DNA of 64,000 nucleotides, from the NCBI RefSeq assembly GCF_056712565.1, contig NZ_CM160072.1. The stretch is one strand, 5' to 3'. Below the pieces are notes generated by a model. It saw only the letters and a list, made by a program, of their open reading frames with translations. It was not told where the DNA came from and did no database searches. How positions within the stretch are numbered: the first letter of the stretch is position 1; each line of letters opens with the position of its first letter. This document shows, piece after piece, positions 37,879 to 41,344 of this stretch. Position numbers and translations under genes: made by a program.

Positions 37879-39660
37879 GTGGGCGATATTGTTTACCTGA
37901 GAATAATCGGTGAGAAGCAGGGCGATATTTCTTCAGGCTGTGGGACGTATGCGTCGGTTGGTAATCGCTGGCAGGTTGGCCATGAAGATGAAATTTTTGC
38001 CTTTGCACTCACCAACGCCATTACCAGTACTGGTAAAGGCGTTAATCTACAGGGGCTACAATTTTGCAAACTCATTGATAAAAGCTCACCGCTACTGTCT
38101 AATGCCATCAATCAGAATGAGCGGTTATTTATTGAAATCGATTTGTATCGTATAAATAAAAGCGGGCGCTGGGAACGGTATTATTATATTCAGCTAAGAA
38201 ATGCTTCATTAACTGCTATTCATGTAAACATTTCTGACAATAATCTTCCTACCGAATGTGTAAATGTTAATTATGACTACATATTATGCAAACATCTAAT
38301 AGCCAATACGGAATTTGACTGGTTGGCCTTTCCTGCTGGCTATAATAGCTTATTTATTCCACCTAAAAACCCACCTGCCAGTAATCTTAACCCTGAGCCA
38401 CTACCAGTTGTTAACCTTCCACTCTCTCCACCAGCGGTTAAACCGGTCTATGCCAAATCCTGTCTGAAGGAGAAGGGATGTACAGATGCCGGAACGGCAG
38501 AAGAACCCGCTGAAAACTTCGGGCAAGTAGCGATTTTTGCTCTGCCAGTGGTTGATGACTGCTGTGGATACCACCATCCGGAGGCTAACGATGTTGGGCA
38601 ACCCGCAGAAGCTCAAACCATGCTACTGTTTCCGGGTAGTGTGTTGGCGGCTCAAATATGGGGAAAATGGTCGCTCAGTGGCATACTCAGTGCAACCTGC
38701 GGCTCTTACATCGGTGCGTTGGCATCTGCTTTGTATATTCCCTCTGCGGGCGAGGGCAGTGCTCGCGTGCCCGGACGTGATGAGTTCTGGTATGAGGAAG
38801 AACTGCGGCAGAAAGCACTAGCAGGCAGTACCGCCACCACCCGGGTACGTTTTTTCTGGGGAACTGACATTCACGGCAAGCCTCAGGTGTATGGTGTTCA
38901 TACGGGTGAAGGTACGCCGTATGAAAACGTCCGCGTGGCGAACATGCAGTGGAACGAGCAGACGCAGCGTTATGAATTTACCCCCGCTCACGATGTCGAT
39001 GGCCCCCTGATTACCTGGACGCCGGAAAATCCGGAACATGGGTATGTTCCGGGCCATACCGGTAACGACAGGCCGCCGCTGGAGCAGCCCACCATTCTGG
39101 TGACGCCGATTCCGGACGGCACCGATACCTATACCACGCCGCCATTCCCGGTTCCTGATCCGAAAGAATTCAACGATTATATTCTGGTTTTTCCGGCGGG
39201 ATCCGGTATTAAGCCCATCTATGTTTACCTGAAGGAGGATCCGCGAAAGCTGCCTGGTGTTGTAACAGGGCGCGGCGTCCCGCTTTCACCAGGAACTCGC
39301 TGGCTGGATATGTCGGTATCCAATAACGGCAACGGCGCACCAATCCCGGCGCATATTGCTGATAAATTGCGCGGACGGGAGTTTAAAACCTTTGATGAGT
39401 TTCGCGAGGCGCTGTGGCTGGAGGTGAGTCAGGATCCGGAGTTGATAGCGCAGTTTTCAAGTGGTAACCAAACACGTATAAAACAAGGATTAACCGCAAA
39501 AGCACCTATTGACGGTTGGTATTATGGCCCTAAAGAAATAGTTAAAAAATTCCAGATACATCATCGTGTTGCAGTTGAATATGGCGGCAGCGTATACGAT
39601 ATTGATAATTTACGAATTGTTACCCCCAGACTACACGATGAGATTCACTACAGGAGATAA
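37879..39660 (+). CDS. Hcp (TssD) with C-terminal extension toxin: Hcp domain, Pro-rich linker, uncharacterised middle region, colicin-type HNH DNase
   Basis: 593-aa ORF with GTG start. N-terminus ...YLRIIGEKQGDISSGCGTYASVGNRWQVGHEDE... fits the Hcp/TssD pattern. C-terminus HHRVAVEYGGSVYDIDNLRIVTPRLHDEIH fits the H-N-H motif of colicin E9-type DNases. Confidence 0.8.
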   Translation: MGDIVYLRIIGEKQGDISSGCGTYASVGNRWQVGHEDEIFAFALTNAITSTGKGVNLQGLQFCKLIDKSSPLLSNAINQNERLFIEIDLYRINKSGRWERYYYIQLRNASLTAIHVNISDNNLPTECVNVNYDYILCKHLIANTEFDWLAFPAGYNSLFIPPKNPPASNLNPEPLPVVNLPLSPPAVKPVYAKSCLKEKGCTDAGTAEEPAENFGQVAIFALPVVDDCCGYHHPEANDVGQPAEAQTMLLFPGSVLAAQIWGKWSLSGILSATCGSYIGALASALYIPSAGEGSARVPGRDEFWYEEELRQKALAGSTATTRVRFFWGTDIHGKPQVYGVHTGEGTPYENVRVANMQWNEQTQRYEFTPAHDVDGPLITWTPENPEHGYVPGHTGNDRPPLEQPTILVTPIPDGTDTYTTPPFPVPDPKEFNDYILVFPAGSGIKPIYVYLKEDPRKLPGVVTGRGVPLSPGTRWLDMSVSNNGNGAPIPAHIADKLRGREFKTFDEFREALWLEVSQDPELIAQFSSGNQTRIKQGLTAKAPIDGWYYGPKEIVKKFQIHHRVAVEYGGSVYDIDNLRIVTPRLHDEIHYRR

Positions 39661-39662
39661 AT

Positions 39663-39947
39663 ATGTTTAAAGAAAAGCTCCAGGATTATACCGAGGATGA
39701 ATTTCTTAATTTTTTAGGCGGATTGAGATCATCTATGAAAGATGGAAAATCCTTAAAAGGTAAGGAGCTAGAAATGTACTGGGATTCATTAGTAGATCAT
39801 TTTATTGAAATTACACAGCATCCGTCAGGGAGCGATCTAATTTTCTACCCTAAAAGTCAAGGAGATGATAAGCCTGAAAACATCCTGAAAATTGTCAAAG
39901 AATGGCGGCGTTCACAGGGGTTACCCTTGTTTAAAGACTCTAAATAA
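39663..39947 (+). CDS. Colicin E9/Im9-type DNase immunity protein, cognate to the Hcp-DNase
   Basis: 94-aa ORF starting 2 nt after the toxin stop; motif HPSGSDLIFYP plus DYTEDEFL and KIVKEWRRSQG resemble the colicin DNase immunity family. Confidence 0.8.
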   Translation: MFKEKLQDYTEDEFLNFLGGLRSSMKDGKSLKGKELEMYWDSLVDHFIEITQHPSGSDLIFYPKSQGDDKPENILKIVKEWRRSQGLPLFKDSK

Positions 39948-40114
39948 AGTAGATAATAAAACTATATATGGAACATCATCGCATCTGGCTAATGCGATGA
40001 TATTAATGACATAAAATAATAATGTGATTGCTCTTAAAAAACAGGTAAAAATACTGAAGCCTCATTAGGTTATTTTATCATTTTCCCGCTTTTACCGATA
40101 CCCTTTGGCTGGAG
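39948..40114 (+). repeat. Direct repeat 1 of the conserved inter-module spacer
   Basis: Near-identical to 40646..40811; contains the palindrome catcatcgcatctggctaatgcgatgat. Confidence 0.8.
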
Positions 40115-40354
40115 GTGAGTCAGTATCCGGAGTTGATAGCGCAGTTTTCAAGCGGTAATCAAACACGTATAAAACAAGGATTAATCGCAAAAGCACCACT
40201 TGAAGGTTGGCATTATGGCACTAAAGAAATCGTTAAAAAATTCCACATGTATCATCGTGTTGCGATTGAATATAGTGGCGGAATTTACGATATTGATAAT
40301 TTAAGGAGGGCACACCTCATTTGCATGATGAAATTTATTACAGGAGATAGTTAA
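40115..40354 (+). pseudogene. Orphan HNH-DNase C-terminal fragment (no Hcp domain; frameshifted at the HNH motif)
   Basis: Matches 39411..39660 of the full toxin; after DIDNL a 1-nt deletion changes the frame (LRRAHLICMMKF instead of RIVTPRLHDEIH), removing the terminal His. Confidence 0.7.
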
Positions 40355-40645
40355 ATGTATAATTTTAAAGATGAAATAGAAGATTACACAGAGCGGGAAT
40401 TCATTGAGTTGCTTGGCGAGTTTACAAATCCAACCGGGGATAACGCTCAATTAAAAGGGGAAGAGCTTGACAAATATTGGGATGATCTAGAAGAACATCT
40501 TACCAGAATTACACAACATCCGTTGATGAGCGATCTTATCTACTATCCTGCAAAGAAGGGAGATGATGAACCTGAAAACATCCTGAAAATTGTCAAAGAA
40601 TGGCGGCGTTCACAGGGGCTACCCTTGTTTAAAGACTCTAAATAA
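40355..40645 (+). CDS. Orphan Im9-type immunity protein paralogue 2
   Basis: 96-aa ORF with conserved C-terminus ENILKIVKEWRRSQGLPLFKDSK; N-terminal half diverged. Confidence 0.75.
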   Translation: MYNFKDEIEDYTEREFIELLGEFTNPTGDNAQLKGEELDKYWDDLEEHLTRITQHPLMSDLIYYPAKKGDDEPENILKIVKEWRRSQGLPLFKDSK

Positions 40646-40811
40646 AGTAGATAATAAAACTATATATGGAACATCATCGCGTCTGGCTAATGCGATGATG
40701 TTAATAACATAAAATAATAATGTGGGTGCTCTTAAAAAACAGGTAAAATACTGAAATTTCATTAGGTTATTTTATCAATTTCCCGCTTTCACCGATACCC
40801 TTTGGCTGGAG
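40646..40811 (+). repeat. Direct repeat 2 of the conserved inter-module spacer
   Basis: Near-identical copy of 39948..40114. Confidence 0.8.
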
Positions 40812-41000
40812 GTGAGTCAGTATCCGGAGTTGATAGCGCAGTTTTCAACTGGTAACCAAACACGTATAAAACAAGGATTAATCGCAAAAGCGCCTCTTGA
40901 AGGTTGGCATTATGGCTCTAAGGAAATTGTTAAAGAATTCCATATATATCATAGTGTTGCGATTGAATGTGGTGGCGAAATTTATGATATTGATAATTAA
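40812..41000 (+). pseudogene. Orphan HNH-DNase C-terminal fragment (truncated by premature stop, HH changed to YHS)
   Basis: Homologous to the toxin C-terminus; stop codon directly after DIDN; HHRV replaced by YHSV. Confidence 0.7.
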
Positions 41001-41047
41001 AGGATTGTTACGCCTCGACTACATGATGAAATTCACTACAGGAGATA

Positions 41048-41344
41048 ATGTATATGCATGATTTAAAATATAAAATATATTTTTACACAGAAGGTGAATT
41101 TCTTGAAATGCTTGAGGAGATAGTAAATGCAACTAGCAAAGATAAATCCCTAAAAGGGAAAAAATTAGAAAAATATCTCGATACCTTAGTGGATCATTTC
41201 ATTAAAATTACTGAACATCCTAAAAAGGGAGATCTCATTTTCTATCCTAATTCCCCAGAAGATGGTAAACCTGAAAACATCCTGAAAATCGTCAAAGAAT
41301 GGCGGCGTTCGCAAGGATTGCCTTTGTTCAAAGATTCAGAATGA
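41048..41344 (+). CDS. Orphan Im9-type immunity protein paralogue 3
   Basis: 98-aa ORF with motif EHPKKGDLIFYP and ENILKIVKEWRRSQGLPLFKDSE; the true start may be the ATG at 41054. Confidence 0.72.
   Translation: MYMHDLKYKIYFYTEGEFLEMLEEIVNATSKDKSLKGKKLEKYLDTLVDHFIKITEHPKKGDLIFYPNSPEDGKPENILKIVKEWRRSQGLPLFKDSE

Follow-up and report, generated by a model that had tools for sequence, protein, structure and literature searches.

The window analysed here is a stretch of 64,000 nucleotides from contig NZ_CM160072.1 (assembly GCF_056712565.1), and the subject of this report is the island between the genes aroP and pdhR that encodes the nuclease toxin Usp (uropathogenic specific protein) and a series of immunity proteins. 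The aroP gene is located at 34781..36151 on the minus strand and pdhR ends at 42564 on the plus strand, whereas in E. coli K-12 MG1655 these two genes are adjacent. A blastn comparison of the K-12 aroP-pdhR region with the window shows that the segment 36324..41609 is absent from K-12, where 180 bp are found in its place. This segment exhibits a GC content of 33-40% across most of its length and is composed of the island and an inserted insertion sequence (IS) element, and all features described within it are given on the plus strand. An insertion at this position relative to K-12 had been proposed in a preliminary description of the window, made without database searches, and is borne out by the comparison. 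The entire window is colinear with positions 87.7-150.5 kb of the E. coli UTI89 genome at 99.98% identity. With high confidence, the locus is identified as PAIusp, an island of approximately 4 kb that is horizontally acquired and found mainly in E. coli of phylogroup B2, and Usp is identified as a specialised Hcp toxin of three domains. This confidence applies to the account given below as a whole, from the identity of the island through delivery by a type VI secretion system (T6SS), the inner-membrane translocation (IMT) step and the DNase to the immunity array.

The usp gene (37879..39660; UTI89_C0121, Hcp-ET3-4) starts with a GTG codon, encodes a protein of 593 residues and is identical at the DNA level to UTI89_RS00600. 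The open reading frame (ORF) and all sequence motifs cited for it in the preliminary description are present in the ORF list and translation. Pfam and NCBIfam searches divide the protein into three domains. The N-terminal Hcp/TssD domain (residues 1-150, 37879..38328) scores 123.5 bits with TIGR03344, the NCBIfam TssD model, against a cut-off of 58.9. It also matches the Pfam T6SS_HCP family (PF05638) over residues 28-139 (E-value 9.5e-13) and several Hcp structures in the Protein Data Bank, including 6a2v (E-value 2.7e-15). The TIGR03344 alignment pairs residues 1-146 with positions 1-160 of the 167 in the profile, so that the Hcp domain is complete and the GTG start plausible. The following linker (residues 151-305, 38329..38793) is proline-rich according to its translation and hydropathy, and then contains a Gly/Ala/Ser-rich, moderately hydrophobic part (residues ~264-290, 38668..38748) that directly precedes the next domain and is followed by the residues VPGRD. 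A transmembrane helix was considered for the linker and rejected, as the best 19-residue Kyte-Doolittle mean is 1.48 (residue 269), a value that is hydrophobic and not convincingly membrane-spanning. Residues 268-301 show a weak similarity to residues 440-474 of klebicin G that is not significant.

The central domain belongs to the Pyocin_S/IMT family PF06958 (residues 309-450, 38803..39228) with a Pfam E-value of 2.2e-39 and a structural match to 3mfb (E-value 1.5e-17). The C-terminal domain (residues 460-591, 39256..39651) is a colicin/pyocin H-N-H DNase of family PF21431 (E-value 2.8e-41), with an E-value of ~1e-30 to the colicin E9 DNase. The solved structures matched by the C-terminus are those of klebicin G, colicins E9, E7 and E2 and pyocins S2, AP41 and S8, with E-values of 1e-39 to 1e-26. 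All catalytic residues are conserved, with H561 and H562 (39559-39564), N577 (39607-39609), H586 (39634-39636) and H590 (39646-39648) corresponding to H102, H103, N118, H127 and H131 of colicin E9. The Hcp-type N-terminus and the colicin E9-type DNase end had both been recognised in the preliminary description and are supported by the Pfam, TIGR03344 and structural matches, whereas the Pyocin_S domain between them had been overlooked. Together, PF06958 and PF21431 form a C-terminal extension of approximately 440 residues beyond the Hcp domain, well above the 60 residues that define an Hcp-ET protein. The GC content varies along the gene, from 40% in the Hcp domain to 52% in the linker, 56% in the IMT domain and 48% in the DNase domain, with 33-39% in the immunity genes. 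This mosaic suggests, from base composition, that the fusion was assembled from parts of differing origin.

The activity of this toxin has been characterised experimentally. Usp of strain Z42 is a non-specific nuclease whose activity requires the H-N-H motif, and an OrfU protein inhibits it (PMC3685522). Zaw et al. (2013), who purified Usp, found it by itself to be toxic to E. coli, an effect masked by co-expressed OrfU proteins, and found OrfU1 and Usp to form a tight complex (PMC3685522). The H314A/H315A and H339A mutants described in the same study are without nuclease activity, and these residues of the old 346-residue numbering correspond to H561/H562 and H586 of the 593-residue protein.

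Two nucleotides after the TAA stop codon of usp, the ATG of the first immunity gene (39663..39947) begins an ORF of 94 residues that is identical to UTI89_RS00605. Its product covers model positions 1-82 of 82 in PF01320 (E-value 8e-30), carries the signature HP..SDLI(F/Y)YP and matches the pyocin AP41 immunity protein, Im7 and Im9 in the Protein Data Bank with E-values of 1e-20 to 1e-15, and is presumed to be the cognate immunity protein of the resident DNase. The earlier assignment of this 94-residue protein to the Im9-like proteins is thus correct, as was the view that an Im-type gene follows the toxin. The part missed is that three genes of this family are present, accompanied by two decayed DNase ends. 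Since the numbering of the immunity genes in the literature varies with island subtype, they are referred to here by slot and not as imu1-3. The slot-2 gene (40355..40645) is an orphan encoding 96 residues, is 64% identical to slot 1 and is labelled a bacteriocin immunity protein in RefSeq. It is preceded by a 79-residue ORF (40115..40354) representing a DNase 3' end in which the HH pair reads YH and a deletion of 1 nt shifts the frame before the last His. A second decayed 3' end, a 62-residue ORF (40812..41000), likewise reads YH and is terminated by a TAA codon directly after DIDN. The slot-3 gene (41054..41344) encodes 96 residues from the RefSeq start, or 98 from an ATG at 41048, and is of the same type as the immunity gene adjoining usp in strains Nissle and UPEC-455U. 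The slot-2 and slot-3 genes are intact, and the three immunity genes are 64-66% identical with an invariant stretch over the last 23 residues of the C-terminus.

The three slots form a tandem repeat with a unit of approximately 695 bp, in which unit 1 is composed of the usp 3' end and the slot-1 gene, whereas in units 2 and 3 a DNase 3' end is followed by an immunity gene and then by a hairpin. A stable hairpin with a stem of 10-13 bp is located 3' of each immunity gene (39975..40001, 40670..40702 and 41367..41401), with z-scores of -2.7 to -4.4 relative to shuffled sequences and no clear T-tract in any of the three. These hairpins may stabilise or attenuate the mRNA or may be break-points for recombination between repeat units.

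A comparison of four PAIusp versions shows that the Hcp, linker and IMT parts of Usp are 91-100% identical between alleles and the DNase domain 80-85%. Nissle and UPEC-455U possess a different DNase end, directly followed by an immunity gene of the slot-3 type of the window. In Nissle, a DNase end of the window type with an intact HNH motif, together with a slot-1-type immunity gene, has been displaced to slot 2 (fragment 4737..4973 of the compared Nissle locus), which shows that toxin-end/immunity modules have been swapped between slots. Strain THO-015 possesses four immunity modules. By analogy with the orphan modules of contact-dependent inhibition and Rhs loci, the orphan slots of the window would be displaced older pairs of toxin end and immunity gene, of which the retained immunity would guard against the Usp alleles of other strains.

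The usp gene, the three immunity genes and both remnant ORFs exhibit 100% DNA identity to UTI89_RS00600-RS00625, which carry the RefSeq labels tssD, bacteriocin immunity protein (three genes) and hypothetical protein (two genes), and a single SNP relative to UTI89 is located beyond the last immunity gene, at position 41383. The aroP-pdhR region of UTI89 has been described as PAIusp, an island of approximately 4 kb with usp and imu1-3, by Rihtar et al. (2020; PMC7142922). That study assigns Hcp, S-type pyocin and colicin nuclease domains to Usp, the same three Pfam domains as found here, and places the island at aroP-pdhR in all usp-positive genomes. Statements on Hcp-ET3-4 are taken here from reviews. 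One review (PMC6730261) equates UTI89_C0121 with Hcp-ET3-4 of Ma et al. (2017), carrying Pyocin S3 and colicin DNase domains, and describes it as antibacterial, with three downstream immunity copies that neutralise the toxin. Hcp-ET1 was considered as a match for Usp and rejected, since its HNH domain is of family PF01844, it lacks a Pyocin_S domain, and the name given to UTI89_C0121 is Hcp-ET3-4. Usp is also present as an evolved Hcp polymorphic toxin in the list of Jamet and Nassif (2015; PMC4436062). The novelty implied by the preliminary description consequently does not hold, as the locus is PAIusp and its toxin is Hcp-ET3-4 (PMC7142922, PMC3685522, PMC6730261). The locus is known, annotated and experimentally characterised, and usp is a standard marker gene of extraintestinal pathogenic E. 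coli. The wet-lab experiments proposed alongside that description have also been published, since toxicity, immunity masking and mutants of the HH pair were all assayed in PMC3685522. The discovery value of the locus is accordingly small, since RefSeq already annotates usp and published work covers its nuclease activity, its immunity proteins and its regulation.

Among 5426 complete E. coli genomes, 1058 (about a fifth) contain matches to usp, 1057 of them with at least 80% of the gene covered, and all 3061 matches are chromosomal. The usp allele of the window is found at 99% identity or above in 62 genomes, including UTI89, APEC O1, IHE3034 and NU14.

The single structural difference from UTI89 is an IS element of 1196 bp at 36463..37658, a site that is empty in UTI89. 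The element is IS5-like and of the ISKpn26 family, with a transposase gene at 36531..37511 (NF033581, E-value 6e-110), terminal inverted repeats GGAAGGTGCGAA and TTCGCACCTTCC and a 4-bp target duplication, TTAG, at 36459-36462 and 37659-37662. Identical copies are named IS5-like element ISKpn26 family transposase in RefSeq. In listing the contents of the island, the preliminary description had found the toxin and immunity genes and left out this element between aroP and usp. Its position is relevant to usp transcription, which is controlled by TyrR and H-NS from the aroP divergent promoter P3 (PMC7142922). P3 is the sole usp promoter identified, and no proximal promoter was found in that study. 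The hexamers published for UTI89 are located in the window at 36267-36272 (-35, AGTACT) and 36292-36297 (-10, TGGTAT) on the plus strand, in the part that is still homologous to K-12. A distance of 166 bp separates the P3 -10 hexamer from the element downstream of it, and a further 220 bp separate the element from the start of usp, whose orientation is shared by the transposase gene. None of the 5426 complete genomes contains an IS at exactly 36463..37658. In strains MSB1_4I and SCU-172, an independent ISKpn26-family insertion of 1195 bp, likewise oriented, is located 42 bp nearer to aroP, with the target CTAG (3264..4458 of each compared locus). In SCU-172 the right flank of this copy is deleted into usp with loss of the first 424 nt, leaving a pseudogene annotated as S-type pyocin domain-containing. 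A consensus scan of 37659..37878 identified no plus-strand promoter and is uninformative, given that the overall number of sites did not exceed that of shuffled sequence, and no convincing plus-strand terminator was found inside the IS or from P3 to usp. The insertion is the sole unusual feature of the locus and is a minor, strain-specific curiosity, which also provides a natural experiment on the transcription and silencing of usp.

No tss, vgrG or PAAR gene is present in the UTI89 annotation from leuO to yadH that matches the window, which agrees with the earlier statement that the window lacks a T6SS apparatus. The accompanying proposal that delivery would need a T6SS encoded elsewhere is likewise supported. 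In UTI89, a complete cluster is located beside the tRNA-Asp gene aspV at 243-269 kb, beyond the limits of the window and at a distance of approximately 117 kb from usp. This cluster encodes tssA, B, C, E, F, G, H, J, K and M, a DotU/TssL homologue, two hcp genes, vgrG, a DUF2169 gene and a PAAR-like gene. In its arrangement it agrees with the T6SS2 described by Ma and co-workers in related avian pathogenic E. coli (PMC5874247), where an hcp-vgrG-DUF2169-PAAR operon diverges from the main cluster and the second hcp is placed at the far end. The Hcp domain of Usp is 40% identical to the 159-residue Hcp encoded at the far end and 26% identical to the 172-residue Hcp. According to a large survey, T6SS i2 is present throughout the major B2 sequence types, without exception (bioRxiv 10.1101/2025.01.23.634537), and these are the lineages in which usp is common.

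The central domain has been studied in a related toxin. Atanaskovic et al. (2022) showed that the PF06958 domain is required for the import of pyocin G across the inner membrane, in an FtsH-dependent manner (PMC9040868). The same study reports that the IMT domain co-occurs with T6SS_HCP and that, in the SecReT6 collection, 97.6% of the T6SS effectors with a colicin DNase contain it. Ma et al., as reviewed in PMC6730261 and PMC6099711, took 'Pyocin S3' for a second toxin domain, a part later assigned to inner-membrane translocation (PMC9040868). On the pyocin G import result, the 'Pyocin S3 toxin' label of the Hcp-ET nomenclature is probably better read as a translocation domain. As for loading, a 2026 structural study proposed that only one Hcp-ET fits per ring and that five ordinary Hcps complete it (PMC13323088).

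A sequence of events can be proposed from these observations. The Hcp domain would allow Usp either to become part of an Hcp tube or to travel with it, the T6SS itself being encoded at another locus (linked to aspV in UTI89), most likely with one Usp subunit among the regular Hcps of a ring. When the T6SS fires, the toxin would pass the outer membrane of an adjacent Gram-negative bacterium. Transfer of the C-terminal domain over the inner membrane would then be brought about by the central Pyocin_S/IMT domain, on the model of nuclease colicins and pyocins, which depend on FtsH. The H-N-H DNase would finally degrade the target chromosome. The producer would be protected by the adjacent Im7/Im9-like protein binding the DNase, and the two orphan immunity genes, as relics of the swapping of toxin ends, would confer cross-protection against other circulating Usp alleles. 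Usp is a useful model for two questions raised in the literature, namely how an extension of approximately 440 residues is loaded on or into the Hcp tube, and whether the Pyocin_S/IMT domain takes T6SS-delivered nucleases over the inner membrane via FtsH.

Several observations weigh against this account of Usp as a T6SS-delivered antibacterial effector. The T6SS of the source strain is predicted from UTI89, to which the window is 99.98% identical, and export of Usp itself by a T6SS is likewise a prediction. Jamet and Nassif (2015) noted that evidence for Usp secretion was then lacking (PMC4436062), and in PMC6730261 an antibacterial effect is given for Hcp-ET3/4 and T6SS2 dependence for Hcp-ET1. 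With an identity of only 26-40% between Hcp domains, co-assembly of Usp with the resident Hcps is not assured. In one study, Imu3 bound DNA but not Usp (PMC3917654). A simple reading of this failure to bind the Usp of its own strain would be that the third-slot immunity is non-cognate, as expected by analogy with displaced modules. Finally, Usp has been reported to be genotoxic to mammalian cells (PMC3917654, PMC7142922), and in this strain usp may be silenced by the IS that separates it from P3.

In a rival reading, Usp is primarily a host-directed genotoxin and virulence factor, which uropathogenic E. coli would release and which would damage the DNA of mammalian urothelial cells, with the immunity proteins serving only to protect the producer. 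As summarised in PMC7142922 and PMC3917654, usp is linked to isolates from pyelonephritis, prostatitis and bacteraemia, and according to the summary in PMC4436062, purified Usp lowered the viability of human cells and activated caspases 3 and 7. Expression of usp is also induced by urea and at 37 C (PMC7142922). However, the architecture of Usp is that of an interbacterial weapon, with an IMT domain that is exclusive to nuclease toxins delivered to the bacterial cytoplasm (PMC9040868). The orphan immunity arrays and the exchange of DNase ends make sense only for antagonism between strains, and PAIusp is also present in the commensal and probiotic strain Nissle. A primarily host-directed function is regarded as improbable on this evidence, although the two roles are compatible with each other. 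Another reading takes Usp for a diffusible bacteriocin of the colicin/pyocin type, released into the medium and imported through an outer-membrane receptor independently of any T6SS. The idea of a bacteriocin preceded all other proposals in the literature (Parret and De Mot, cited in PMC3685522) and agrees with the homology of the C-terminal two thirds of the system (IMT, DNase and Im-type immunity) to colicins E9 and E7, pyocins S2 and AP41 and klebicin G. This reading is hardly credible for Usp, as the protein contains no receptor-binding or Tol/Ton domain and its N-terminus is a full-length Hcp above the TssD cut-off. No lysis gene was found among the ORFs or annotation of the island, no LexA box (CTGT-N8-ACAG) was found in the window, and usp is chromosomal in all 1058 genomes. 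A classical colicin or pyocin operon was rejected as an identity for the locus on the same grounds.

The IS element permits two further readings that concern the source strain and not the toxin as such. In one, the island is transcriptionally dead because the element cuts usp off from P3, its only promoter, and at most the immunity genes still matter. The location of the element between the -10 hexamer and the usp start agrees with this reading, as do the missing sigma-70-like plus-strand site between the IS and usp (in a scan that was uninformative overall), the failure of PMC7142922 to identify a proximal promoter, and the association of a similar IS with a deleted usp 5' end in SCU-172. Against it, the usp ORF is intact and identical to that of UTI89, and usp and the transposase gene are co-oriented. 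Given this shared orientation and the lack of a convincing plus-strand terminator between P3 and usp, read-through from P3 or from a transposase promoter is possible. IS5 upstream of H-NS-silenced operons (bgl, flhDC, fucAO, glpFK) usually activates them, which also counts against a dead island. Loss of transcription is thus considered a possible state of the island, though a somewhat doubtful one. In the other reading, IS5-family insertions in the H-NS-silenced usp leader, representing at least two independent events 42 bp apart in the same orientation, rewire the expression of a T6SS DNase. Such rewiring would consist of relief from H-NS silencing together with uncoupling from TyrR and aromatic amino acids, or of a toxin switched off with its immunity kept. 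This reading is speculative and rather unlikely, and if true would be a new case in which IS5 governs a weapon used between bacteria. The element may silence usp, allow read-through or activate it through a disturbance of H-NS silencing, as is the case for IS5 at other loci. Taken together, the observation made in the preliminary description is confirmed, and its functional reading of the locus is supported.

Beyond the island, an internal direct repeat of approximately 300 bp is seen as BLAST self-matches in aceF at 45418..46283. This is an ordinary feature that corresponds to the three lipoyl domains of the E2 subunit. A search of 36000..42000 against Rfam returned nothing near any gathering score.

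Compared with known systems, the locus is closest to PAIusp of UTI89 (PMC7142922, PMC3685522, PMC3917654), with which it shares its genes, insertion site and domain architecture, the sole structural difference being the 1196-bp ISKpn26-family element in the leader between P3 and usp. Like the other Hcp-ET effectors (PMC6730261, PMC6099711), Usp combines an N-terminal Hcp with a toxin extension at the C-terminus, is followed by an immunity gene and is encoded away from the T6SS core cluster. The nuclease colicins, pyocins and klebicins (E9/E7/E2, S2/AP41, klebicin G) resemble Usp in the IMT domain PF06958 and the H-N-H domain PF21431, with the catalytic His and Asn residues kept, and in the PF01320 immunity gene immediately downstream. 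Unlike the nuclease colicins, Usp possesses an Hcp N-terminus instead of receptor-binding and Tol/Ton translocation domains, is chromosomal and not plasmid-borne, has neither a lysis gene nor an SOS box, and would be delivered by a contact-dependent T6SS.

The same cassette of IMT and colicin-DNase domains is found on another T6SS effector, the antibacterial DNase VPA1263 of Vibrio parahaemolyticus (NF047924). Residues 206-590 of Usp align to positions 373-711 of the 711-position NF047924 profile (E-value 1e-62) with a score of 212 bits, far under the family cut-off of 900, and Usp is not a member of the VPA1263 family. The two proteins differ in the N-terminal region outside this match, which in VPA1263 is a MIX domain and not an Hcp. 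The organisation of the immunity array is shared with the orphan arrays of contact-dependent inhibition (CDI; cdiA-CT/cdiI) and Rhs systems, in which displaced toxin 3' ends lacking the 5' part are likewise arranged in tandem with intact immunity genes and the expressed slot holds different modules in different strains. PAIusp is distinguished from these arrays by a carrier that is an Hcp and not CdiA or Rhs, and by short modules of ~695 bp that all belong to a single DNase/Im family.

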